DNA from: Candidatus Tenebribacter davisii
GTDB taxonomy: Bacteria; Cloacimonadota; Cloacimonadia; Cloacimonadales; TCS61
Assembly (NCBI GenBank): GCA_030765535.1
Contig: JAVCCH010000025.1
Location: 7,871 to 71,870 of the forward strand
Direction of reading: 5' to 3'
DNA: 64,000 nt
Position numbers and translations under genes: made by a program. The notes beneath the pieces were generated by a model, which ran no database searches, was not told the DNA's origin, and saw nothing but the letters and a program-made list of their open reading frames with translations. Positions 31,262 through 55,604 of this stretch are shown piece after piece (within the stretch, counting starts at the first letter, position 1; each line of letters opens with the position of its first letter).

Positions 31262-31515
31262 CAGCCACTCAATAAAAAATAAAATAAATTATTTTATGCA
31301 AATTAATAAGGTTCTAACTTATTATATATCAATATAGTACAAGCATCAAAATTTTTTGTATTTTTTTTATATTTTTTTTAAGATTTTAAACAAATAATTA
31401 TTTATTAACTCTATAGTTAATTTTTTTGTTTAAACTCAACAGTTAAAAAATTTATTCTTGACGTGAATTCTCAGCATAGATTTATATTATAACAAATTTG
31501 GTAGAGAAGGGAAAA

Positions 31516-32484
31516 ATGATATATAATGATGATGATTTAATAGAATTGCAGCAATTATCATATAATTATTCTTTATATCGCACTGGTAATTTCGATCTAG
31601 CTAATGATATATCTATGAAGACTATCGGTATCTTTCTTCTTAAAGCTGATACCATTGATAAAGAGAATTCATCGGGTTGGATCATTAATACATCCAAGAA
31701 TCACATTCAATCACATTACAGAAGCTTTAAAAAAAATCAGGATAACATTGCAAAATATCGTCATGACCTTCTTGCAAAATTCAATCTTGATCCTTCACTA
31801 GAGACAGATTCACAATTGAAGGAAGCTTTTACAGAAGTTCTTCATACTCTAGATATTGAAGAGACAAAAATGATCCTCTTATATTTTCAATTAAAAGAAA
31901 AAACTAAGATCATGAATACCATACTTGATATTTCATATGAGGCGTTAAGAAAAAAAATATTCCGGATCAAACGTAAACTGAAAGCTGAAACTTACAAGAA
32001 ACTGGGTGTTATAGCTACAAAAAAGATCGTAACTCCGCAACTCAATAAATTGATCATTGATTTTTTAAAGAGTTTCAAAAAAAACCTGGAAGAAAATACA
32101 CTTGAGAAAATGTACTACTATTTTTCAAAAGTAGATCTGAATAAATTCAACCCTACCTATGAAATAAAAAAAATCGTAGAGTATGAGATCGAATTCAATG
32201 ATTCGATCTATAAGGTATGGGTTTTCTTCCAAAATAACAATAATGAAAGTGACTCCTTCTATATCAGATTTGTTATAGATGAAAAAAAACACTTAAAAAT
32301 ATTAACACCCCCTCAAAAAAGTGAGAAGATGTTTAAATTTAATAAAGATTCGGAAGAGGGCAAAAAGATATTGCAGATGCTGAAGTCTGCACCTGTTGAT
32401 AAGACCGGCTTAAGTCAATTTTCATCTGAAGAATTAGAAAAATTATTAAAGCAGATCCAGCAGAAACCAAATCCTGATAAATAG
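31516..32484 (+). CDS. ECF-type sigma factor with a ~165-aa C-terminal extension
   Basis: Region 2 'SYNYSLYRTGNFDLANDISMKT...GWIINTSKNHIQSHYR' and region 4 'LHTLDIEETKMILL...ILDISYEALRKKIFRIKRKL', followed by an extra alpha/beta domain. Confidence 0.75.
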   Translation: MIYNDDDLIELQQLSYNYSLYRTGNFDLANDISMKTIGIFLLKADTIDKENSSGWIINTSKNHIQSHYRSFKKNQDNIAKYRHDLLAKFNLDPSLETDSQLKEAFTEVLHTLDIEETKMILLYFQLKEKTKIMNTILDISYEALRKKIFRIKRKLKAETYKKLGVIATKKIVTPQLNKLIIDFLKSFKKNLEENTLEKMYYYFSKVDLNKFNPTYEIKKIVEYEIEFNDSIYKVWVFFQNNNNESDSFYIRFVIDEKKHLKILTPPQKSEKMFKFNKDSEEGKKILQMLKSAPVDKTGLSQFSSEELEKLLKQIQQKPNPDK

Positions 32485-32498
32485 ATAATTTGGTTAAA

Positions 32499-33785
32499 TT
32501 ATTTAAGCAGTATACATTTATTTGAAACTACTGATTTTCCATTTATTTCCATTATATAAAGATAAATTCCAGAAGAAACAGGTTGATTTTTAGTATCAGT
32601 TCCGTCCCAGATTACATTGAATTTATTTTTTTCTTGTTCTTCTATTTCGCTCAGAATGACAGTAAGGTCTTTAACTTTTTGGCCTTTTAAATTAAATATT
32701 TTTATTTGTATGTTTTCGGTATTCTGGGTGTTAACTTCACATGAAATAGTCGTTTCTGAATTGAAGGGATTAGGGTAATTGGTTAAACTGCAAGCAGTTT
32801 TAGGGAGTTGTTTATCATTTGCAGAAACGATATCAGGAACTATTTTAATATCAGTTGCATATGAACCTACAGTGTATTCATTTAAGAGAGATTCATTAAT
32901 ATCAAATACTTTCACAGTGAAATCCTGTCCCCATAATCCGCCTAGAACGAACAGGTTATCATCTGTAGAAGTGACCATACTACCACCGGGAATAAATGGA
33001 TTAGTAACATCGTATATTATTTCATAAGTTTCTGCATTATAGGCATAAAGTGAAGTGCCATTACCATCTGCAATATAAATAGTATTATTTACCATCAAAG
33101 CAAAATTACTTGTTATTCCCCCAATATCCAGAGTGCTCTCAACCGTATTTGAAGCAGGATCTATTATGCAGATCTTACCAGGAATAGTAACCCAGTCTCC
33201 CCCGCAACTCACATGGATCTTACCATTGACTGCTGCCAGGAATTGCGGATTCACTTCAGTCGGGATAGTTGTATCAACGCTGAATGTTTCAAGATCGATA
33301 ACACTGACACTGCAATTGGAATATCCGGTTCCATAATCACTATTACCCACATATAACTTCCCATTCAAAATAGCCATTCCAGCAGGATTCCCGCCAACTT
33401 GAATAGAGGATTCAACAACATCTGTGGCAAGATCGATCTTATAGACCTTATTTATCATTCCACCTGTAGTATAGGCATCATCACCATATATAATTAAATC
33501 ATAAGGATTCGATGAGTTCTCAATATATATATTCGTGATCGTACTGCCGGTATTTATATCGATCTTCTGTACACTGTTATCCCAAGAATTTACAACATAT
33601 GCAAATTCAGTTGTTAAGGCAACCCTGTTTGGCGAAGAACCCAGAACACTGTACACATTGTCTACCTCACCTGTGTCGAAATCAATTCTGGACAAAGTCT
33701 CACTTCCTGAATTAACTATAAATCCTACAGACCCCCATAAATTTATTGTTAAGAATATTATTACAATTATTAAATTTTTTTTCAT
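32499..33785 (-). CDS. YncE/BtuG-like beta-propeller with a FlgD/T9SS-like C-terminal domain
   Basis: Repeats 'AYVVNSWDNSVQKID', 'KLYVGNS' and 'SVSVIDLET'; CTD 'NYPNPFNSETTI...WDGTD...SSGIYLY...KCILLK'; last gene of the btu block. Confidence 0.75.
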   Translation of the reverse strand: MKKNLIIVIIFLTINLWGSVGFIVNSGSETLSRIDFDTGEVDNVYSVLGSSPNRVALTTEFAYVVNSWDNSVQKIDINTGSTITNIYIENSSNPYDLIIYGDDAYTTGGMINKVYKIDLATDVVESSIQVGGNPAGMAILNGKLYVGNSDYGTGYSNCSVSVIDLETFSVDTTIPTEVNPQFLAAVNGKIHVSCGGDWVTIPGKICIIDPASNTVESTLDIGGITSNFALMVNNTIYIADGNGTSLYAYNAETYEIIYDVTNPFIPGGSMVTSTDDNLFVLGGLWGQDFTVKVFDINESLLNEYTVGSYATDIKIVPDIVSANDKQLPKTACSLTNYPNPFNSETTISCEVNTQNTENIQIKIFNLKGQKVKDLTVILSEIEEQEKNKFNVIWDGTDTKNQPVSSGIYLYIMEINGKSVVSNKCILLK

Positions 33786-33801
33786 TTTTTCCATCCTTGA
33801 A

Positions 33802-35934
33802 TCATATTTTATATTCAATTCCCAAATTTATTTCCCAGTTAATTCCGGGTCGTGGTACATGATCATAAATTTCATATAATTTATTCATTATATTATCCAC
33901 TTTAATGGAAGGTGTAACCCTGAAATTCTGCCAAACCACTGAATATTCCACTCCGGCATTTAAGAGATCATATGCAGCAAGTTGATGTTCTGTAGTGGAT
34001 TGATCAGAATTTGTCCATTGTTCTCCAATAAGTTTATAAGAGATATTCCCCTTAAATTTTCTCGTTCTTATCTTAAGGTTTATATTAAGAGAATGATCCG
34101 GCACATAGAGAATTTTACTGTCATAATTAGGATCATTTTCAGTTCTATTCACGGCAGAGCTTTTTGTATATATCGTAACAAGTTCCATAAATTTATATGG
34201 TTTAACATTCACTTCAAGTTCCCAGTTATCAACCTCTGCAGTTGAGAGATTTCTGGGTTTCCACTTACTCCATTCATCTCTAAACCAAATGATCATATCA
34301 TCAATATCATCATGTCGATAAGTAACTTTAAAAATGTACTTTGAAATTATAAATTTGGAAAAGATCTGCCAGCTTAATGAACCTTCTGGTTTTAGATCGG
34401 GATTACCCGATACATGACTGTCTCCTTTCCAAAATAGATTGTAGTAAGAAGGTAACGTATAACCGTTTGCTACATTCCCGCCTAATGAGATCATAAAATA
34501 ATTCTCATAGGAAAATTCCGGTTCCAATTTCCAGCTTGTATGATCATCAAAGCCCGTAGTATTATCCCAACGTGCTGATCCGGTTAAACTTGTAATATAC
34601 GGAAAGTGTTTTTGTCTGAGCTTAGTTTTTCCAAAAACGGCAAAGTTTTCTCTAAAAACTTTTTCAGTTGATTGTTCCGGATAATTCAAATCTGTATATT
34701 TAAATTCCTCATAACGGTAATCTCCACCCCAATCAATGTAGAAGATATCACTTAAATATTCCGAATGAAGTTTTACCTCTCTGCTTTGTTGCTTGTTCCT
34801 GGCTAAAGTTGCCAGATAAATATTTTGTGCCCAGGGATCGTCAAGCCGAGTATTATCATAAACAGACTTATCAAGTGAATAATAGAGATCAGCTTTTAGA
34901 TTATAATCCATTATCTTTCTGGAGTAATTAAAAACATGTTTTTGTGTTTGTCCTGTTAATCGGCTGTTTTTATACCATTCCAGAGATTCAATATTACCAG
35001 GTAATTTTCTAAAGAAATCCTGGAAAAGTAATTTATATGCAAACATGCCAATGGGACTAGTATATGCTAGATTTAAATTTGCGTCATAAATAGATTTCTC
35101 GTTATGTTCTCTTACCTTCAAAATATCCGGATCATTCTGTGGAATATAGGTAAAATCATTGCGGGTAAAACTTTTTCTAAAGTAGGCATAAATCTGAACT
35201 TTAGATGTTGACCTGGATAGTGCAATTGAATGTTGATCCAGACCAAAAGAACCGAAAGTATGAACAGCATTAATCTTGTATCTACTTTGTGCCTGTTTTG
35301 TATTAATATTTATTATTCCGCCCATTGAACCAGCTCCAGCTATACTGCTTGAACTTCCTTTCACAACTTCTATACTCTCTATGATCTCAGCTGGAATGGT
35401 CGAAATATCAAAAGCGGTCCCACTTTTATTTAAGGGAATTCCATCCAGCATTATAAGTGTGTGACGTGCTTTATAACCGGGGAAGATTATCTTCTGTTCT
35501 TCTCCGAAAAGTGGTAATCCTGATATTTGCAGATCAGAGCTTTCGCGCAGTATATCAGCTGCTGAGCCTGAATTATTTTCAGATCTTATCACAATAACCT
35601 CACTTGAACCAATTAATCCTTTCTGCATTTCTTCGATCACTCTTAATCCCTGGATCGTTATAACTTTATCTTGTAGAATCACTGTTTTTTCAATGTTGCC
35701 GGCTGCTTCTGTTTTATCTTGATAATTAATCTTATGAAATTTTACCTCATCTTCTGCCGATACATTATTAATATTGAAATAACCATTTTTTTGTGATATT
35801 ATTGCTTTATCTTTGTAAGTAATTATCACATCACGAATTGGTTTTCCGGCATCATTCACTACTCTGGCTGTTATATTTAAACTTAATAATTTAATCGTAA
35901 TAAAAAATATAATCACCAATATCTTAACTCGCAT
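33802..35934 (-). CDS. btuB: TonB-dependent receptor, likely cobalamin (BtuB-like)
   Basis: N-terminal carboxypeptidase-like domain; plug 'LIMLDGIPLN...IESIEVVKGSSS...GGIINI'; 'NPDLKPE'; C-terminal 'DNIMNKLYE...GIEYKI'; btu context. Confidence 0.8.
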   Translation of the reverse strand: MRVKILVIIFFITIKLLSLNITARVVNDAGKPIRDVIITYKDKAIISQKNGYFNINNVSAEDEVKFHKINYQDKTEAAGNIEKTVILQDKVITIQGLRVIEEMQKGLIGSSEVIVIRSENNSGSAADILRESSDLQISGLPLFGEEQKIIFPGYKARHTLIMLDGIPLNKSGTAFDISTIPAEIIESIEVVKGSSSSIAGAGSMGGIININTKQAQSRYKINAVHTFGSFGLDQHSIALSRSTSKVQIYAYFRKSFTRNDFTYIPQNDPDILKVREHNEKSIYDANLNLAYTSPIGMFAYKLLFQDFFRKLPGNIESLEWYKNSRLTGQTQKHVFNYSRKIMDYNLKADLYYSLDKSVYDNTRLDDPWAQNIYLATLARNKQQSREVKLHSEYLSDIFYIDWGGDYRYEEFKYTDLNYPEQSTEKVFRENFAVFGKTKLRQKHFPYITSLTGSARWDNTTGFDDHTSWKLEPEFSYENYFMISLGGNVANGYTLPSYYNLFWKGDSHVSGNPDLKPEGSLSWQIFSKFIISKYIFKVTYRHDDIDDMIIWFRDEWSKWKPRNLSTAEVDNWELEVNVKPYKFMELVTIYTKSSAVNRTENDPNYDSKILYVPDHSLNINLKIRTRKFKGNISYKLIGEQWTNSDQSTTEHQLAAYDLLNAGVEYSVVWQNFRVTPSIKVDNIMNKLYEIYDHVPRPGINWEINLGIEYKI

Positions 35935-36706
35935 TTTTCCCCGGATATATTAAATTTGGTTTTCCCGAAACAGGATTTTTTATTATTTCCAGTTCAGCAT
36001 TGTATAATTCTTTCAGATTCTCGGAATTCACAATTTTCTCTGGTTTACCATCAGCTATCACAACACCTTCTTTCAGCATGATTATTCTTTCACAATATTC
36101 GCTTGCTAAATTTATATTATGTGAAACCAGAATTATCAGCTTATTGTGTTCCATATTAATATCTGAAAGCAGCTGCATAATTTCCAGTTGATGATTTATA
36201 TCAAGATTTGCAAATGCTTCATCCATCAATAACACCTGTGTCTCCTGAGCCAATGCTCTGGCAATAGATACACGCCTGCGTTCCCCACCACTGAGTTGAG
36301 AGTATAATTTATTTTTAAATGGAACAAGATCAAGCTGAGTTAAAATATGTTGAACAATTTTCTTATCATTTTTTGAGTAGTTCTGCCAGCGTCCAAGATA
36401 CGGGAATCTTCCCATTAATACAAGATCCTCAATTGTGTAATCAAACTGGAGCTGGAAATCCTGCGGGATTATTGCTATCTGTCTGGCAAGTTCCTGCCGT
36501 GACCAGGTATTAAACTCTTTACCTGAAATATATACTTCCCCTGTTTTCTCAAGCTGAAAATCTATAATTGACCTCAGTAAAGTGGATTTCCCAGCACCAT
36601 TAGGTCCTAGAAGAGCACAGAATTCCCCTGTATGAAAATCTATTGAAAGATTGTTCAATACTCTTTTTTGCTGGTATGAAACACATATATCTTTTAACTT
36701 TATCAT
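35924..36706 (-). CDS. btuD: Cobalamin/siderophore ABC transporter ATPase
   Basis: 'GPNGAGKST', 'LSGGERRRVSIARALAQ', 'LMDEAFANLD' and 'SHNINLA'; its stop overlaps the btuB start. Confidence 0.85.
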   Translation of the reverse strand: MIKLKDICVSYQQKRVLNNLSIDFHTGEFCALLGPNGAGKSTLLRSIIDFQLEKTGEVYISGKEFNTWSRQELARQIAIIPQDFQLQFDYTIEDLVLMGRFPYLGRWQNYSKNDKKIVQHILTQLDLVPFKNKLYSQLSGGERRRVSIARALAQETQVLLMDEAFANLDINHQLEIMQLLSDINMEHNKLIILVSHNINLASEYCERIIMLKEGVVIADGKPEKIVNSENLKELYNAELEIIKNPVSGKPNLIYPGKNAS

Positions 36707-36779
36707 TTTTTTACCTTTTCCCAAAATATTACTTGCTAATTCATACTAATTTTATATGTTATACTCTAAGGAGATGATA

Positions 36780-37190
36780 ATGAATATTTCAACGAAGACA
36801 GAATATGCTGTAAGAGCTTTATCTGAACTTGCTCTAAGATCAACTGACAAGCCTGTTTCCATTAATGACATCTGTAAAAGCCAGAATCTCCCTGTGAAAT
36901 ATGTTGAACAACTTTTCCGCAAATTGAAACAGAATGAACTCATAATAAGTATCCATGGAGCTAAAGGCGGATATCAACTTGCCAAAGAGATGAATATTAT
37001 CTCACTCAAAGATATTATGCTGGCCGTTGATGAGAATTATGTTACTTCGGTCTGCTCTGGAAATCCGGAAGGACGAACCCACTGTATCGGGTTACCATGC
37101 GGATTTAAACAATTGTGGGATGAAATAAAAGAACATATGGAACAATATTTTGACTCAATAAAACTGAGTCAGATCGTGGCAAAACTATAG
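36780..37190 (+). CDS. Rrf2 family regulator (IscR-like, 3 Cys)
   Basis: 'TKTEYAVRAL', 'YVEQLFRKL', 'GAKGGYQL' and C-x9-C-x4-C; AAGGAG RBS. Confidence 0.9.
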   Translation: MNISTKTEYAVRALSELALRSTDKPVSINDICKSQNLPVKYVEQLFRKLKQNELIISIHGAKGGYQLAKEMNIISLKDIMLAVDENYVTSVCSGNPEGRTHCIGLPCGFKQLWDEIKEHMEQYFDSIKLSQIVAKL

Positions 37191-37198
37191 GAGAATTT

Positions 37199-38365
37199 AT
37201 GGAAAAAATATATTTTGATAATTGCTTAACATCTAAGCCTGCACCGGAAGTTATTGAAACAATAACTGAATTTATGAAAAATAAATATTACTTCCCTGCC
37301 AATTTCATTGCAACAGGAACTGAAGCAGCAAATAATTTAGCTAAGGCTAAAAAGATTGTCGCAGATTCAATAGGAGCAAATTCTAAGGAGATCCATTTCA
37401 CATCTGGAGGAACTGCTGCAAATAACCTGGCAATAAAAGGTTATCTTACTGCAAATTCAAATAAAGGAACCCACATTATTTGTTCAGTTATCGATTACCC
37501 TGACCTTCTTACTAATGCTGCTTTCTTTGAGGAAAGTGGTTTTGATGTTACATATCTTCAGGCTGATAATGATGGATTTATTGATCTTGAACAGCTTAAA
37601 GAATCAATCAGAGAAGATACTGTATTATTTATGACCACTATGGTTAATCATACAGTTGGAACAATTCAACCCTTAAAAGAGATCCGAGAAATATTAGATA
37701 GCTCCAAGCATAAGATCGCAATGCATATTGATGCCTGTGAAGCCTATGCACGAGTACCTGTAAATGTAGATGAGCTTGGGATAGACCTTATGTCAATAAG
37801 TGCTCACAAGATCCATGGACCTCAAGGTATTGGAGCTTTATATCAACGAAAAGGAATCGTTTTAGGTCAAGTTCAACACGGTATCAACCGAATGGATAAT
37901 TTACAGACAGGCGGATTAAATACAGCATCTATTGCAGGATTTGCTAAAGCTATAGAACTAGCCTTCAGTAACTTGGACGAGAATATTTCACAGATCCGTA
38001 AACTTTCTACTTACTTATTGAATAAAATAGAATCCACAATTTCAGACACTTTATTAAATGGTCCTCGTGGCAATAAACGTGCTTCACATAATATAAATAT
38101 TTCGTTTGATTATATCGAAGGTGAAGCAATTATGATGATGATGGAAATGAATGGTGTTTCTATTTCTACAGGAAGTGCCTGTGCTTCCCAGGGTTTAAAA
38201 CCAAATTATGTTTTAATGGCTTTGGGCAGAAGTCATGAACAATCACACAGTTCAATGAAATTCACACTTAGCAGATATAATACATTCCAAGAGATAGACT
38301 ACACCGTAGAAAAGCTTGCAGAAGTAGTTAAAGAACTTCGTTCACGAAGTCCGCTGTGTAATTAA
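37199..38365 (+). CDS. iscS: IscS/NifS-family cysteine desulfurase homolog with altered substrate-binding residues
   Basis: 'FTSGGT..NNLAIKG', PLP Lys in 'SAHK(204)' and the Cys loop 'STGSAC(328)' are retained; Y100, H151, E181, G239 and K354 are non-canonical. Confidence 0.8.
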   Translation: MEKIYFDNCLTSKPAPEVIETITEFMKNKYYFPANFIATGTEAANNLAKAKKIVADSIGANSKEIHFTSGGTAANNLAIKGYLTANSNKGTHIICSVIDYPDLLTNAAFFEESGFDVTYLQADNDGFIDLEQLKESIREDTVLFMTTMVNHTVGTIQPLKEIREILDSSKHKIAMHIDACEAYARVPVNVDELGIDLMSISAHKIHGPQGIGALYQRKGIVLGQVQHGINRMDNLQTGGLNTASIAGFAKAIELAFSNLDENISQIRKLSTYLLNKIESTISDTLLNGPRGNKRASHNINISFDYIEGEAIMMMMEMNGVSISTGSACASQGLKPNYVLMALGRSHEQSHSSMKFTLSRYNTFQEIDYTVEKLAEVVKELRSRSPLCN

Positions 38366-38392
38366 TTTATAAAGACAAATAAGGAGAATATT

Positions 38393-39013
38393 ATGCAATA
38401 TTCACAAAAGGTACTAGATCATTTTATGAAGCCACACAATATAGGTAAATTAGAAGATCCTGATGCTGCTGCTACCGAAGGAAGTCCAGCTTGTGGTGAC
38501 CAGATCTCGATATTTCTAAAAATTCATCCTGAGACACATATCATCGAAGATATTAAATTCCAATCATACGGCTGCGCTTCCAACATCGCTACAGGTTCCA
38601 TTATCACAGATATGGCAATGGGGAAAACTATTGAAGAGGCTAAGGACATAACCTGGAAAGGTGCTGCTGAGGAACTTGATGGTCTACCGGCAGTAAAAAT
38701 GCACTGTTCTGTTCTTGCAGTAGATACACTTAAGAAAGCTATCAAGAAATACGAGATCGAACATGGTCTGGCAGAAGAAGAAGCATTTACTAAAGATACT
38801 ATTATAGAAGAACTCAAGAAAGTTATCTATCCAGGTGTAGGAGAAGATATCATCACCCTTAAAATGGTCAAGTATGTCGGTTTTGAAAATGGTGTAGCTA
38901 TCGTTGATGTAGAAATTCCCAAATTCGATACACATCGTGATAATGTAGCGGAAGAGATAAAAGAACATTTAGAAGTATTCAAAGAAATCAAAGAAGTAAA
39001 AATTACACTATAA
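38393..39013 (+). CDS. iscU: IscU/NifU scaffold fused to a C-terminal DUF59 (SufT/MIP18-like) domain
   Basis: 'PACGD', 'YGCAS' and 'KMHCS', followed by 'IIEELKKVIYPGVGEDIITLKMV'. Confidence 0.88.
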   Translation: MQYSQKVLDHFMKPHNIGKLEDPDAAATEGSPACGDQISIFLKIHPETHIIEDIKFQSYGCASNIATGSIITDMAMGKTIEEAKDITWKGAAEELDGLPAVKMHCSVLAVDTLKKAIKKYEIEHGLAEEEAFTKDTIIEELKKVIYPGVGEDIITLKMVKYVGFENGVAIVDVEIPKFDTHRDNVAEEIKEHLEVFKEIKEVKITL

Positions 39014-39033
39014 TATTTCATATCATCTTATCT

Positions 39034-39064
39034 AAAACCTTCGGGAATACCCGGAGGTTTTTTA
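39034..39064 (+). terminator. Intrinsic terminator of the Fe-S cassette
   Basis: AAAACCTTCGGG-AATA-CCCGGAGGTTTT with one G-U pair on the plus strand (an A-C mismatch on the minus strand), followed by a T-run. Confidence 0.85.
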
Positions 39065-39108
39065 TTTCATCCCACTCTATACACTTATAAAGAACTATAT
39101 TACAATTT

Positions 39109-40032
39109 TTATTTACTTTTTGCCATAATGAACAGGAAGAAAGGACAACCTAGAAATGCAGTAATTATTCCTACTGGAATTTCTATAATCGTGATGTTCA
39201 TAGCAATAAGATCACACATTATTAAAAGTACTGCTCCGAATATTGCTGAGTAAATGATCCCAGTTCTCTTATTCCCACCCGAGATCATACGGACAATATG
39301 TGGAACAATAAGACCGATAAATCCGATTATACCTGCATAAGCAACAGTAATCCCAGTAAGAAGTGAACTAATTATAAAAATCTTTCTACGCAGTTTTTTC
39401 ACATCAATACCTAGGCTGCCGGCAATGATATCACCGGTTGTCAGTATCATTAACTTTCGTGACAGCAGGAATAAATACAACATCAATAAGATTGAAATTA
39501 TAAATACGATCACGAAATAAAACCATTCCCTACGGCTGAAAATATGGCCTAGATTACCCATCAGCACGTTGATGATATTCCCTATATCCTGCTGATTGAA
39601 ATACATGATAAGTGAGATAAAAGCTGAGAAGAACATTCCTACAATAATACCGGAAAGCAGCAATTTAGTTCTATTAAAAAATCCACCTAAATGTGCCAGG
39701 AACCAGACGATAGTTAATGAGATCAATGCTCCCGCAAATCCAAACAACGGCATGAATAGATATAAACCCAGAATTCCTGCTAATATGCTTCCAAATGCTG
39801 CACCGGAAGATATACCTAGAATGTACGGTTCGGCTAAAGGATTATTTAGCATTATCTGGAAAGAATAACCAACACCGGACAGTATAAATCCTACGAGGAA
39901 TGCCAGCATAATTCGCGGTAATCTCACAGCAATTAAGATATGTGTTGTAGGCTTATTTATAAAAAGATAGAACACAACCAGCAGGATGGAAAAGATACCA
40001 AAAAGAATGAATATCCATTTCCTATTTTTCAT
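39109..40032 (-). CDS. btuC: FecCD/BtuC family ABC permease
   Basis: 'VRLPRI', 'NNPLAEPYILGISSGA' and 'GIIGFIGLIVPHIVR'. Confidence 0.88.
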   Translation of the reverse strand: MKNRKWIFILFGIFSILLVVFYLFINKPTTHILIAVRLPRIMLAFLVGFILSGVGYSFQIMLNNPLAEPYILGISSGAAFGSILAGILGLYLFMPLFGFAGALISLTIVWFLAHLGGFFNRTKLLLSGIIVGMFFSAFISLIMYFNQQDIGNIINVLMGNLGHIFSRREWFYFVIVFIISILLMLYLFLLSRKLMILTTGDIIAGSLGIDVKKLRRKIFIISSLLTGITVAYAGIIGFIGLIVPHIVRMISGGNKRTGIIYSAIFGAVLLIMCDLIAMNITIIEIPVGIITAFLGCPFFLFIMAKSK

Positions 40033-40846
40033 GGAAAATCCTGATCAGTCCAGCTAACCCTTCTATAATTCTGGGTGAAGCCCGTAAAATTACATCAGGA
40101 TCAATATCGCTGGTAGTGTAGATCCTGCCTGTTTTCACAGCAGTAATTACTTCCCAACCTTTTCTTTGCATAACTTGCTCTTTGGTCATACCGGGATATG
40201 TTAATATAATTATTTCAGGATCATTCATAATTACCTCTTCAGGATTTATCCTGCTGTAATCTCTGGGTAATTTTGGGAAAATATTATCTCCACCAGCAAA
40301 GGTGATCAACTCTCCTACAAATGATTCATCGCTAACGCTCATTATAGGATTCCCATAAATTTCTATATACACTCTCGGTAAATTTGTGAATTTATTATAA
40401 TTTTGAATTATTTTTTTCAAACTATCCGCAACAAATTCAGCCCTATCTAATTTATTTATCTCCTCTCCTATCACAATTATTGCAGAGAAAAAATCTTCTA
40501 TCGTTTGAGGATATATAGGTATTGTATTTATATTAAGTTTTTTTAGTTGGGAAGCTATCGCTTGTTGTTCCAAACCGGAAGTAAACACAACGCTAGGATC
40601 CAATGAGATGATCTTTTCATAATTAATATTGCCAAAGTTACCAACTTTTTCAATTTCCTGCAGATTTTTGGGATAATCACATTCTATTGTTACACCAACA
40701 ATATTCTTTGCACCTTCAAGTAGACAAACAATCTCAGCGATTTCTGGAGATGTAATAACATACCTATCACCCTTAAGCTCTTTGCTTTTTGAGCATCCGG
40801 TTAGTATAATCAGACTAAAAACAAAAACCAGAATTATTTTTTTCAT
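40022..40846 (-). CDS. btuF: Cobalamin-binding lipoprotein (BtuF-like)
   Basis: Lipobox ILTGC; 'NYEKIISLDP', 'INPEEVI..DPEII' and 'LRASPRI'; directly behind the riboswitch. Confidence 0.85.
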   Translation of the reverse strand: MKKIILVFVFSLIILTGCSKSKELKGDRYVITSPEIAEIVCLLEGAKNIVGVTIECDYPKNLQEIEKVGNFGNINYEKIISLDPSVVFTSGLEQQAIASQLKKLNINTIPIYPQTIEDFFSAIIVIGEEINKLDRAEFVADSLKKIIQNYNKFTNLPRVYIEIYGNPIMSVSDESFVGELITFAGGDNIFPKLPRDYSRINPEEVIMNDPEIIILTYPGMTKEQVMQRKGWEVITAVKTGRIYTTSDIDPDVILRASPRIIEGLAGLIRIFHEK

Positions 40847-40900
40847 AAAAAAAATCCTTTTATCTCTGAAGCTAAAAACAGCTGCTAAAATAAAAGGATT
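40847..40900 (-). promoter_or_regulatory. Riboswitch expression-platform hairpin (SD-sequestering and terminator-like)
   Basis: 11-bp stem formed by 40853-40863 and 40890-40900 contains the AAAGGA SD; a U8 run overlapping the stem base runs to the btuF AUG. Confidence 0.7.
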
Positions 40901-40948
40901 CATAAAACTTATTAACACAATAACTCATGCTCCGGAGTATTTGTAAAT

Positions 40949-41107
40949 AAGCTCTATGGCAGGTTTCCTGGCTTGCAGATGGATATATATTACAGACCTT
41001 CCCAATTACTCAGTGACCCGTAACTCCAATAATATCTTCTACTTACAGTGGCGGAGACCGCTCCCGATTTACACGAGATTCCCTTTTACTCTTGCACCAT
41101 CAAGCTT
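40949..41107 (-). ncRNA. Cobalamin riboswitch
   Basis: Minus strand reads GGTGC...AAAAGGGAA-TCTCGTGTAAATCGGGAGCGG...CCGCCACTGTAA...GTCACTGAG...TGGGAAGG...AAGCCAGGAAACCTGCC, all canonical B12-element blocks. Confidence 0.95.
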
Positions 41108-41166
41108 CACTCTATAATAATAATTTTAATTAATTAACTACTGACAATATGTCAAGCACTGTAATA

Positions 41167-52180: not shown

Positions 52181-53014
52181 TCAATTTAATTTGGAAGAAA
52201 TCTTAGATACAATTTTTTGGAATTCTTTGGCAGATGTGCTAGTATTATTATCTTTTAGAAAAGCTTTCCCTGTATCTCCAGATTTTACTATGTTAACATC
52301 AATTGGAATGCTGCCTAAAACATCTATATTGAAATCTTTAGCAGCTTTTTCAATTCCAAGACCTGAGAAAATATCTGTCTTCTTACCACAATGAGGGCAG
52401 ACAAATGTACTCATATTCTCAATAATTCCTAAAATTGGAACATTCATTTTTTGCGAGAATTTTATAGTTTTTCTTGCATCTAACAACGCAATATCCTGCG
52501 GAGTTGATACTATAATAGAACCATCAACATTCTTTAAAATTTGAACAACACTTAATGGCTCATCACCAGTACCTGGGGGAGAATCAACAATTAAGTAATC
52601 AAGCTCAGGCCATCTAATATCCTGCATGAATTGCTTTATTACACCCATTTTCATAGGTCCTCTCCAAATGATCGGATCATCAGGATTCCCAACTAAAGTT
52701 GCAATAGTTAATGCATATAGATTTTCCATAACTTTAATAGGCTCAGGAAACTCTTCATTTGCATTCATCTGTAGTTTTTCTCCTTCTATTCCCAACATTT
52801 TTGCTATGGAAGGACCATGAATATCTACATCAAGGATTCCAACTTTATTTCCCTGTAAAGCGAGTCCATAAGCAACATTTACAGCTACAGTGCTTTTCCC
52901 TACTCCGCCTTTACCACTTATCACGATCAGCTTATGTCTGATCCTGTCCAAGTTTGCTTCAATGCGTATTTCTTCTTTTGTTTGTTCTGGTTTTTTGATA
53001 TCTACCGGTTCCAT
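52181..53014 (-). CDS. mrp: Mrp/ApbC/NBP35 Fe-S cluster carrier ATPase
   Basis: 'SGKGGVGKST', 'DVDIHGPS', 'WRGP', 'DSPPGTGD' and 'ENMSTFVCPHCG'; start at 53014 after GGAGG. Confidence 0.93.
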   Translation of the reverse strand: MEPVDIKKPEQTKEEIRIEANLDRIRHKLIVISGKGGVGKSTVAVNVAYGLALQGNKVGILDVDIHGPSIAKMLGIEGEKLQMNANEEFPEPIKVMENLYALTIATLVGNPDDPIIWRGPMKMGVIKQFMQDIRWPELDYLIVDSPPGTGDEPLSVVQILKNVDGSIIVSTPQDIALLDARKTIKFSQKMNVPILGIIENMSTFVCPHCGKKTDIFSGLGIEKAAKDFNIDVLGSIPIDVNIVKSGDTGKAFLKDNNTSTSAKEFQKIVSKISSKLN

Positions 53015-53210
53015 ATTTCCTCCATATCTTACCATGACATTATAAGATATTATTTTTATTAATGGCAAATAATTATTTTCAATTTTATTGTCTATCAAAT
53101 TGTAATAGTTTATATTATCAAAATTGAAATGTAGAAACAAAAAAATCATTGACTAATTGAACCATTCTGAAATAGGAAAAAGTAAATTAAATAAAAAAAG
53201 GAGAGAAATA

Positions 53211-53939: not shown

Positions 53940-55604
53940 ATGAAAAATCTTTTACTCGTTGGGATCAATGCACGATATACACATTTAAATCTGGCAATTC
54001 GATACCTCAGAAATTATGTAAAAGATCTCAATTATACAACAAAAATTTTAGAATTTTCTATTAACCAGAACATACTTGAAATTCTGGAATATATAGTAAA
54101 AGAGCAACCTAATATTATAGCTTTTTCTGTATATATCTGGAACACTGAGAAAGTTCGTTTGCTATTGCCGGAACTTAAGAAGCTGCTGCCGGAAAGTAAA
54201 GTAATAATGGGTGGCCCAGAAGTAAGTTATGATCCACATAATTGGCTGAAAGAATTTCCAGAAATTGACTTCATAATTTGCGGAGCTGGCGAATCCGGCT
54301 TAAGATCAATTTTAGAGAATAATTTGAATATTTCAGAAAGGGTAATCAAAAAGAAAAATCCACACTTCTCAGAAATCCCTTTTCCCTACTTAGCAGCAGA
54401 TTTTCCTGAGATCAATGATAAATATATATATTATGAATCAAGTAGAGGTTGTTCATTTAAATGCAGTTATTGCCTATCTTCCCGATTAGATCAAGCTTTG
54501 GAATTTCGTGATACCGCCACTGTAAAAGAAGAACTATTATTTTTGATAAAACAGAAACCCAGGATATTAAAATTTGTTGATCGCACTTTCAATGCTAATA
54601 AAAAACATGCTCGTGATATTTGGAATTTTCTGATTGATCTTGCTCCAGATATGACATTTCATTTTGAGATCTATCCAGAATTACTTGAAGATAAAGATCT
54701 GCAGATCTTAAAGAATAGTCCAAAAGGATTATTCCAATTTGAGTTAGGTATTCAATCTACTAATCCTGATACGTTAAAAGCTATTCACAGAGCCAATAAC
54801 TGGCAAAAGACTACTGACATTATTAAGAGGCTTATCTCCTTAGAGAACATCCATATTCACGTTGATATGATAGCTGGCTTACCATATGAAGATATAATAA
54901 GCTTTGAGAGATCATTCAATGATATCTTCAAGCTGCAGGCAGATAATTTTCAACTCGGTTTTCTTAAAGTTCTGCAGGGTACAGAAATGGCAGAAAATGC
55001 AGATAATTTTGGTATAGTTGCTACAAAAATTAGTCCCTATATTATTCTGAAGAGTAACTGGTTGTCTTTTACTGAACTGAATAAAATTCATAAGATAGAA
55101 ACCTTGTTAAATGAATTCTCCAACTCAAACAAATTTAATACGACTCTAAAACATCTCATCCTTAAATATGATTCTCCCTACATGTTTTTCAAGCAGTTCT
55201 TAACTTTTCTGCAAATAAGAAAATTTGATCTGCAGACAAAGAACTGGCAGAAAAAAGCTGAAAAATTAGTAGATTTCATTAATACTGATTTTCCGAAAAG
55301 CAAAGAATTCTTTTTTGATTGTTTAAGATGGGATTGGTGTTTACAGGCTAGATCTCATTATTATCCGGAATTTATTAAAAACGATGTAAATTATAAAGCA
55401 AAACAAATCGGCTATGAGTATTTAAGTTCTTTAAAATTGAAAGATAAAATAAAATTGAATAGTATTGAGCTATCTGTTTCAGATATTAAGAAAGTAATAT
55501 ATTTCATACCAGTTACAGATAGATTTAAACAGGAACATTTACCAACTTCTAATATCGCAGCATTTTTACATGGCAAACAATTAGCAATATCACAGATAAA
55601 TTAA
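53940..55604 (+). CDS. B12-binding radical SAM protein (DUF4080-type C-terminus)
   Basis: N-terminal B12-binding domain ('FSVYIWN', 'GGPEVS'), CxxxCxxC 'RGCSFKCSYCLS', and 'DMIAGLPYE'. Confidence 0.88.
   Translation: MKNLLLVGINARYTHLNLAIRYLRNYVKDLNYTTKILEFSINQNILEILEYIVKEQPNIIAFSVYIWNTEKVRLLLPELKKLLPESKVIMGGPEVSYDPHNWLKEFPEIDFIICGAGESGLRSILENNLNISERVIKKKNPHFSEIPFPYLAADFPEINDKYIYYESSRGCSFKCSYCLSSRLDQALEFRDTATVKEELLFLIKQKPRILKFVDRTFNANKKHARDIWNFLIDLAPDMTFHFEIYPELLEDKDLQILKNSPKGLFQFELGIQSTNPDTLKAIHRANNWQKTTDIIKRLISLENIHIHVDMIAGLPYEDIISFERSFNDIFKLQADNFQLGFLKVLQGTEMAENADNFGIVATKISPYIILKSNWLSFTELNKIHKIETLLNEFSNSNKFNTTLKHLILKYDSPYMFFKQFLTFLQIRKFDLQTKNWQKKAEKLVDFINTDFPKSKEFFFDCLRWDWCLQARSHYYPEFIKNDVNYKAKQIGYEYLSSLKLKDKIKLNSIELSVSDIKKVIYFIPVTDRFKQEHLPTSNIAAFLHGKQLAISQIN

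Follow-up and report, generated by a model that had tools for sequence, protein, structure and literature searches.

A corrinoid-uptake locus split by an iron-sulfur assembly operon: a candidate riboswitch-gated non-contiguous operon of the Cloacimonadota

How could a single B12 signal reach every part of a transporter when the genes that encode it are separated by an operon on the opposite strand? This question is raised by the corrinoid-uptake locus of Candidatus Tenebribacter davisii, a member of the Cloacimonadota, within a window of 64,000 nucleotides (contig JAVCCH010000025.1, positions 7,871 to 71,870 of the forward strand; "the window" denotes this whole stretch, and positions are counted from its first letter). 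The genome under study (G000) is a 3.0-Mb metagenome-assembled genome (MAG) of 218 contigs, in which genes were called from an open reading frame (ORF) listing combined with Pfam and NCBIfam scans, and RNAs from an Rfam scan. On the minus strand, a cobalamin riboswitch is followed by btuF and btuC; the plus strand then carries rrf2, iscS and nifU, genes of the iron-sulfur (Fe-S) cluster assembly type; and the minus strand resumes with btuD, btuB and a beta-propeller gene (Table 1). The gene identities and strands assigned in an initial annotation of this DNA hold in these scans, as does the spacing of 73 nucleotides (nt) that it gave between btuD and rrf2 (36707-36779). Two co-directional sets of btu genes are therefore parted by three opposite-strand genes, which is the positional arrangement of a non-contiguous operon.

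The locus is tentatively read here as a riboswitch-gated non-contiguous operon, an excludon-type unit ancestral to the Cloacimonadota, and this reading is held with slightly less than even confidence. The signals that favor it are the number of riboswitches, the terminator platform of the riboswitch, a one-sided terminator at the nifU/btuC junction, a btuD strand on which no promoter is conserved, and a riboswitch that has changed place in lineages with a broken layout; taken together, they suggest that transcription reads through from btuC to btuD. A single B12-controlled transcript running antisense through the Fe-S genes had been one of two options in the initial annotation, and these comparative signals speak for that option, with the transcript itself still standing as a proposal.

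In the proposed unit, transcription would begin upstream of the cobalamin riboswitch. With corrinoid bound, the hairpin and U8 tract of the platform would terminate the transcript before btuF. When corrinoid is scarce, RNA polymerase would read btuF and btuC, pass the nifU/btuC junction, whose U-tract would serve the nifU strand only, and run antisense through nifU, iscS and rrf2 for approximately 2.4 kb, over the rrf2 promoter and into btuD, btuB and the propeller gene. A single B12 signal would then set the levels of all transporter parts, and, because of the overlap, transcription for B12 uptake and the only Fe-S assembly operon could each dampen the other. We infer all transcriptional steps past the riboswitch from sequence and its conservation. 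A further proposal, that under corrinoid scarcity the antisense transcript also throttles the only Fe-S assembly system and so couples B12 status to Fe-S supply throughout the phylum, is judged rather unlikely.

The cobalamin riboswitch and its expression platform

The aptamer is the sole Rfam match in the window and the sole cobalamin riboswitch in the genome. Its expression platform lies 42 nt past the aptamer and abuts the btuF ATG, with an AAGGA resembling a Shine-Dalgarno sequence placed within the 3' arm of the hairpin. Of 28 riboswitch loci, 17 have a comparable hairpin and U-tract after the aptamer; among them are loci from the other orders of the class and that of genome G035, in which the riboswitch is placed before btuD. 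As the platform shows, canonical hairpin-U terminators are in use in Cloacimonadota. Given a platform of this kind, B12 most likely acts on transcription elongation, with ligand switching predicted from the aptamer and platform, and anything downstream on the same transcript would inherit the B12 signal.

This assignment also moves the start of btuF, which is not the GTG at 40918 that opens a longer ORF. Residues 1-24 of that longer ORF are coded by the platform hairpin and U8, and the ATG at 40846 opens a lipoprotein signal, MKKIILVFVFSLIILTGCS, with the lipobox LTGC coming after Met25 of the longer ORF. Because the hairpin and U8 belong to the riboswitch and the lipoprotein signal begins at this codon, ATG 40846 is the start of btuF. 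A translational-only riboswitch, which had been considered on the basis of the GTG start, was dropped given the hairpin-U8 and the lipoprotein start.

The number and placement of riboswitches bear directly on how the distal genes might be controlled. Genomes with the split layout each hold one gathering-level cobalamin riboswitch, which lies upstream of btuF. A second cobalamin riboswitch before btuD was not found in the window (at gathering level), in the whole genome or in the loci of other orders. All parts of a BtuFCD importer are present in the locus, namely a binding protein, a FecCD permease and an ATP-binding cassette (ABC) ATPase. BtuC occurs in a single copy and the other ABC ATPases of the genome are at most 34% identical to BtuD, so the permease and its ATPase must be made together.

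Conservation and junctions of the split layout

Conservation of the layout was assessed in 102 unique species-level nifU loci, 64 of which have enough sequence on both flanks. The full split layout is present in 43 of these 64 loci, or in 44 when locus L173, which fell below the identity threshold, is counted. Genomes of the same genus share the arrangement, as do 9 of the 13 sampled families of the order, and BtuD identity among them falls to 40%; the arrangement recurs in all 12 loci from other orders of the class, where Rrf2 is approximately 33% and BtuB approximately 25% identical. Conservation of the genes around the cluster reaches no further than the genus or a few families. Because the order is present both in the order to which the window belongs and in other orders of the class, gene order indicates that the split layout is ancestral to Cloacimonadota, and that it has been retained far beyond background synteny.

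At the convergent junction between nifU and btuC, the hairpin had been described as a better terminator on the plus strand than on the minus strand. This is confirmed: on the plus strand the stem has a G-U wobble (folding free energy, dG, -15.3) and is followed by T at 7 of 8 positions, whereas on the minus strand it has a C-A mismatch (dG -10.9) and T at 4 of 8 positions. For comparison among species, the most stable hairpin closed by a G-C pair was sought in each nifU/btuC spacer, and T was counted in the following 9 nt on each strand. Across 42 species, the mean T count is 4.98 on the nifU side and 2.83 on the btuC side, and at least 6 T are present in 22 of 42 species on the nifU side versus 0 of 42 on the btuC side (paired Wilcoxon p=7e-6). 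The 61 other convergent junctions of the genome under study, taken as a control, carry tracts on both sides, with means of 5.8 and 5.6. Even the weaker side of these control junctions has a mean T count of 4.98 and at least 6 T in 29 of 61 cases (Mann-Whitney versus the btuC side, p=2e-6). Moreover, several junctions in other orders, 46-63 nt long, have no hairpin at all. With a one-sided U-tract at some junctions and no hairpin at others, btuFC transcripts therefore lack a conserved intrinsic stop.

The divergent spacer between btuD and rrf2 measures 62-85 nt in most loci. Its rrf2 strand carries a conserved promoter of the form TTG(C/A)C(A/G)-N16/17-TATGTT, with a 17-bp palindrome of the CATACTAATTTAGTATG type embedded between the boxes, which is presumably the operator of Rrf2. 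The distance between this promoter and rrf2 is constant in 66 loci, and the promoter scores 9.7 versus 5.7 for intragenic controls (p=1.6e-12). Its -35 box begins 7-26 nt from the btuD start. For btuD itself, a conserved sigma-70 promoter was not found in the same 66 loci, where the best matches on its strand vary in sequence and position and score 6.5 versus 5.7 for controls (p=0.02). The initial annotation had held that a promoter of its own for btuD would tell against a common transcript; what is seen is a species-specific candidate in this genome (Table 1) and no promoter that is conserved across the 66 loci.

The lineages in which the layout is broken provide a further signal. In family f12, the riboswitch stands directly before btuD, btuB and the propeller gene in 9 of 9 genomes, and it stands directly before the propeller gene in 6 of 6 genomes of family f2 and in the 1 genome of family f6. 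In all five rearranged genomes with scanned btuFC loci (families f2, f4 and f12), btuFC is without a riboswitch. Those Cloacimonadaceae loci in which btuD has stayed beside rrf2 but btuFC has been lost have a longer spacer, 128-135 nt, and their btuD strand bears a TTGAC(A/T) box. Thus, where the split is broken, the distal genes gain either riboswitch control or a recognizable promoter element.

One rearranged cluster in family f2 (L185, G112:C13) retains most of these genes in a different arrangement. It comprises btuF and btuC, then nifU and iscS, a 1.6-kb gap, btuD and btuB and, approximately 2 kb further on, a riboswitch followed by the propeller gene; rrf2 is missing from the cluster, and btuF has no riboswitch ahead of it. 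The riboswitch seems to have shifted inside the cluster.

Spacer length at both junctions varies among species, and much of this variation is explained by a palindromic element resembling repetitive extragenic palindromic (REP) sequences. The element, GTTCCCAAAG-N6-CTTTGGGAAC, recurs in intergenic spacers of several Cloacimonadota genomes, for example between btuD and rrf2 in locus L034 and between nifU and btuC in loci L092, L094, L095, L104 and L106.

Alternatives to a common transcript

Several observations weigh against read-through. Non-contiguous operons are defined by transcripts and have been stated not to be computationally predictable (PMC11034616), and because of this definition the read-through reading stays unproven. 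None of the RNA runs searched holds the window, and metatranscriptome contigs from studies of the relatives L077 and L053 (cold seep and sediment) yielded nothing from the locus except short, unlike fragments. The antisense path is approximately 2.4 kb long and carries no conserved ORF on the btu strand, the C/G ratio of its RNA is 1.08, and Rho is encoded in the genome; it is thus plausible that Rho ends transcription on the way and that polymerases collide head-on with those reading an essential operon. Antisense terminator-like sites within the cassette show no significant depletion, with 0.106 versus 0.184 per kb, a trend only (p=0.09; 13 sites in 54 loci). The control set for the junction terminator comes from one genome only, and the p-values overstate independence because the compared species are related. 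In addition, few of the 42 scored junction hairpins look as bidirectional as that of the genome under study (U4, stem -10.9). The sigma-70-like match TTGAAA-18-TAGAGT is possibly an independent btuD promoter in this genome only, and one MAG, G151, seems to keep the riboswitch with btuFC and to have btuD on another contig.

A hidden btu-strand gene inside the cassette was considered and rejected, as the longest stop-free stretches have a median of 112 amino acids and their positions differ between species.

The explanation that competes best with the proposed unit, and one with an appreciable chance of being right although well short of even, is that the locus consists of two or three separate units. 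The riboswitch would then govern btuFC only, and btuD, btuB and the propeller gene would be expressed from a non-canonical promoter of their own that overlaps the promoter and operator of rrf2. The Rrf2 regulator may, in this case, control both divergent units according to Fe-S status, and btuFC transcripts may run part-way into nifU as a 3' antisense tail that falls short of btuD. A regulator gene beside a conserved divergent operon often forms a regulator-target pair with it, and rrf2 occupies this position relative to the btuD operon, with its palindrome lying 30-45 nt from the btuD start in all loci. The sigma-70-like match on the btuD strand of the window points the same way, and loci that lack btuFC (in the Cloacimonadaceae, family f2 and G151) show that btuD and btuB can be expressed without btuFC upstream. 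Rho and 2.4 kb of untranslated RNA likewise favor separate units by telling against full read-through. However, the 66 loci share no promoter on the btuD strand, either by sequence or by position, and in other orders the btuD start codon stands just 7 nt from the rrf2 -35 box. Separate units also leave unexplained the upkeep of the convergent nifU/btuC junction throughout the phylum, the missing U-tract on the btuC side and the move of the single riboswitch to btuD or the propeller gene when the layout is broken. Furthermore, the ATPase and the outer-membrane parts would escape B12 control while the permease is switched off.

Less probable still, and on balance unlikely, is a frozen accident, in which the Fe-S operon was inserted into a btu operon long ago and no regulatory cross-talk ensued. 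Under this explanation, the only reasons for the persistence of the layout are that the cell cannot do without the cassette and that spacers this short leave little room for viable breakpoints. That the cassette is the sole Fe-S scaffold system and that the divergent spacer is tiny fit this explanation, as does the survival of several lineages that broke the layout. Yet the convergent spacer ranges from 38 to 1191 nt and tolerates repeat insertions, and the junction is nevertheless kept in 55 of the 78 loci with room for it, whereas synteny outside the cluster decays beyond the genus or family. Neither a strand-asymmetric terminator nor riboswitch relocations would be expected under neutrality.

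The initial annotation had also entertained an assembly inversion and an insertion that uncoupled btuD and btuB. An inversion, or an insertion that is recent and specific to the strain, has practically no chance of being correct: although the genome is a 218-contig MAG, nothing was found in favor of either, unitigs from four DNA runs (two labeled marine metagenome and two labeled salt lake metagenome) span both junctions without alternative joints, and more than 50 further species-level genomes, complete single-contig genomes among them, share the order, which excludes the inversion and places any insertion before the divergence of the phylum.

Known systems, gene functions and neighboring genes

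Among the closest counterparts of the proposed unit are the non-contiguous operons of Staphylococcus aureus, whose transcript atlas lists 18 chromosomal cases, such as menE-menC with a gene on the opposite strand, and in which co-transcription was established by direct RNA sequencing and reverse transcription PCR (RT-PCR) (PMC11034616). Nearly all of these have one inner gene, the single three-gene case was unconfirmed by RT-PCR, and conservation is mostly confined to the genus (PMC11034616). As in S. aureus, co-directional genes of the same function are parted here by opposite-strand genes, gene order is conserved above background, and a single transcript is proposed to overlap the inner genes in a way that would allow mutual repression. 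Unlike in S. aureus, co-transcription is only inferred, the three inner genes form a probably essential operon, and the layout spans a phylum and is led by a metabolite-sensing riboswitch.

The excludons of Listeria monocytogenes (Sesto et al. 2013, cited in PMC9943018; reviewed in PMC7154746) offer a second comparison. As in these, the proposed long transcript would be antisense to its neighbors and would also serve as the mRNA of genes beyond them. The partners in Listeria, however, are usually of opposing function, whereas B12 uptake and Fe-S assembly are not obviously opposed.

Antisense-acting riboswitches have been proven experimentally in only two cases, the cobalamin riboswitch with AspocR against pocR in Listeria and the S-adenosylmethionine (SAM) riboswitch behind ubiG-mccBA in Clostridium acetobutylicum (PMC9943018). 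In the proposed unit a riboswitch would similarly decide whether an antisense transcript is extended, and one of the proven cases also senses B12. In those systems, the riboswitch sits immediately at the 3' end of the gene it targets and controls a non-coding antisense RNA, whereas here the antisense stretch comes after two sense genes and before another three. The strict layout of an antisense-acting riboswitch is accordingly absent: the aptamer is 1.9 kb from nifU, with btuF and btuC between them, and would act in this manner only via read-through. A 2023 survey of 292 antisense-riboswitch candidates has, in its main text, no Cloacimonadota, iscS, nifU or btuF (PMC9943018). The split layout was found neither in full-text literature searches nor in the main text of PMC9943018 or in PMC11034616.

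The gene content can be compared with that of two familiar systems. Like Bacteroides-type loci, the one described here combines a riboswitch, a binding protein, a FecCD permease, an ATPase, a TonB-dependent receptor and a surface beta-propeller beside the receptor; unlike those loci, which are contiguous, it holds an opposite-strand Fe-S operon between btuC and btuD, and its propeller has a sorting domain of the type IX secretion system (T9SS). Riboswitch-led corrinoid-uptake loci with btuFCD, btuB and btuG are said to have been described in Bacteroides and other gram-negative bacteria, reportedly by Rodionov in 2003, Wexler in 2018 and Abellon-Ruiz in 2023. Like iscRSU, the Fe-S cassette opens with a three-Cys Rrf2 regulator in an operon of the iscS-iscU type, and the palindrome within its own promoter is consistent with autorepression. 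In contrast to iscRSU, the scaffold has an extra FeS_assembly_P domain and the cassette lacks hscBA, fdx and iscA. The candidate Rrf2 operator differs from the IscR sites of E. coli.

Non-contiguous operons and excludons are known from a few Firmicutes. If the proposed reading is true, such a unit would be conserved throughout a phylum, would be gated by a terminator that senses a metabolite, and would overlap a three-gene operon that is probably essential. Architectures of this type could then be ancient and strongly selected, and a sequence-level signature for finding further cases would be available in the combination of a terminator that acts on one side only, the lack of a promoter inside the unit and a riboswitch that changes place upon breakage of the layout. 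The acquisition of B12 would also be tied to Fe-S biogenesis in anaerobes that need both cofactors. If read-through were refuted, the locus would still be a useful synteny marker for Cloacimonadota and an unusual ABC importer in which permease and ATPase are regulated separately. The palindrome of the rrf2 promoter, conserved across the phylum, is a ready candidate operator for an IscR-like regulator.

Table 1. Features of the split corrinoid-uptake locus, with positions in the window
Feature	Position	Strand	Remarks
Cobalamin riboswitch aptamer (RF00174)	40941..41116	-	87.6 bits versus gathering threshold 31.5; full model 1-189
Sigma-70-like promoter candidates upstream of riboswitch	41120..41155	-	TTGACA 41155-41150, or TTGTCA-16-AATTAT 41147-41120; consensus match only
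Riboswitch expression platform	40847..40898	-	44-nt hairpin 40898-40855, dG -16.2, then U8 40854-40847
btuF	40022..40846	-	Peripla_BP_2; periplasmic or lipoprotein corrinoid-binding protein; start corrected
btuC	39109..40032	-	FecCD-type permease; one copy in genome
Hairpin between convergent nifU and btuC	39034..39061	.	Good intrinsic terminator for nifU, weaker for btuC
nifU/iscU-type scaffold	38393..39013	+	NifU_N and FeS_assembly_P; sole copy in genome
iscS/nifS-type cysteine desulfurase	37199..38365	+	Pfam/NCBIfam scans
rrf2 (IscR-like regulator)	36780..37190	+	Three C-terminal Cys, C-X9-C-X4-C
Sigma-70-like match upstream of btuD	36763..36792	-	TTGAAA-18-TAGAGT; score 9.9 here, 5.4-6.6 in five other same-genus loci
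rrf2 promoter	36733..36760	+	TTGCTA-N16-TATGTT; spacer holds palindrome CATACTAATTTTATATG, candidate Rrf2 operator
btuD, ABC ATPase	35924..36706	-	Only close FecE/BtuD-type match in genome
BtuB-like TonB-dependent receptor	33802..35934	-	Plug and barrel domains; overlaps btuD stop
BtuG-like beta-propeller	32499..33818	-	Propeller repeats, T9SS C-terminal sorting domain

The family scans place the proteins with differing precision. The NCBIfam scores of BtuC, BtuD and BtuF all lie under the cut-offs and are similar to those from heme or siderophore models; it is mainly the riboswitch that argues for the predicted corrinoid specificity of the importer. The top NCBIfam matches of the receptor are BtuB models, the best at 91.8 bits versus a cut-off of 836. 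Sequence matches of the propeller in the PDB are YncE-family or "putative surface layer" propellers, and its gene adjoins btuB, an adjacency that is conserved among relatives and corresponds to the position of a BtuG-type gene. Rrf2, the desulfurase and the scaffold all fall below the NCBIfam equivalog cut-offs and match an IscR-IscS-IscU-type operon at the family level. A SufBD-family gene was not found in the whole genome, which has one NifU-type scaffold; the cell seems to have no Fe-S assembly system besides the rrf2-iscS-nifU cassette. Elsewhere in the class, no NifU match was found at E<=1e-40 in a reduced 1.6-Mb family (f14).

In the receptor region, the unitigs of two DNA runs break at the overlap of the btuD stop and the btuB start (35712 and 35924/35925), with 255-nt loose ends of unlike sequence, and several same-genus MAG contigs end inside btuD. 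The breaks and contig ends suggest co-existing strain variants of this region. Beyond the receptor, the propeller gene converges with a gene resembling extracytoplasmic function (ECF) sigma factors (31498-32484); the two end 14 nt apart (32484-32499), with no terminator between them.

Farther along the window, the B12-binding radical SAM gene that the initial annotation had noted at 53940 is real (53940-55604) and has a DUF4080 domain. It is adjoined, on the opposite strand, by an Fe-S carrier ATPase of the Mrp/NUBPL type (52181-53149). A physiological link between the uptake locus and this radical SAM enzyme is speculation.

The cobalamin riboswitches of genome G036 were set aside as uninformative for the question of read-through, since the genes downstream of them are not btu genes but a fused succinyl-CoA-ligase-like gene and an unknown ORF. 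The first of these is an unusual riboswitch target. At positions 1020-1200 of locus L154 (G036:C51), a cobalamin riboswitch of 120.9 bits precedes the gene for a 670-amino-acid fused succinyl-CoA-ligase-like protein with ATP-grasp_2, Ligase_CoA and CoA_binding domains, which is followed by genes for EamA and YitT membrane proteins.

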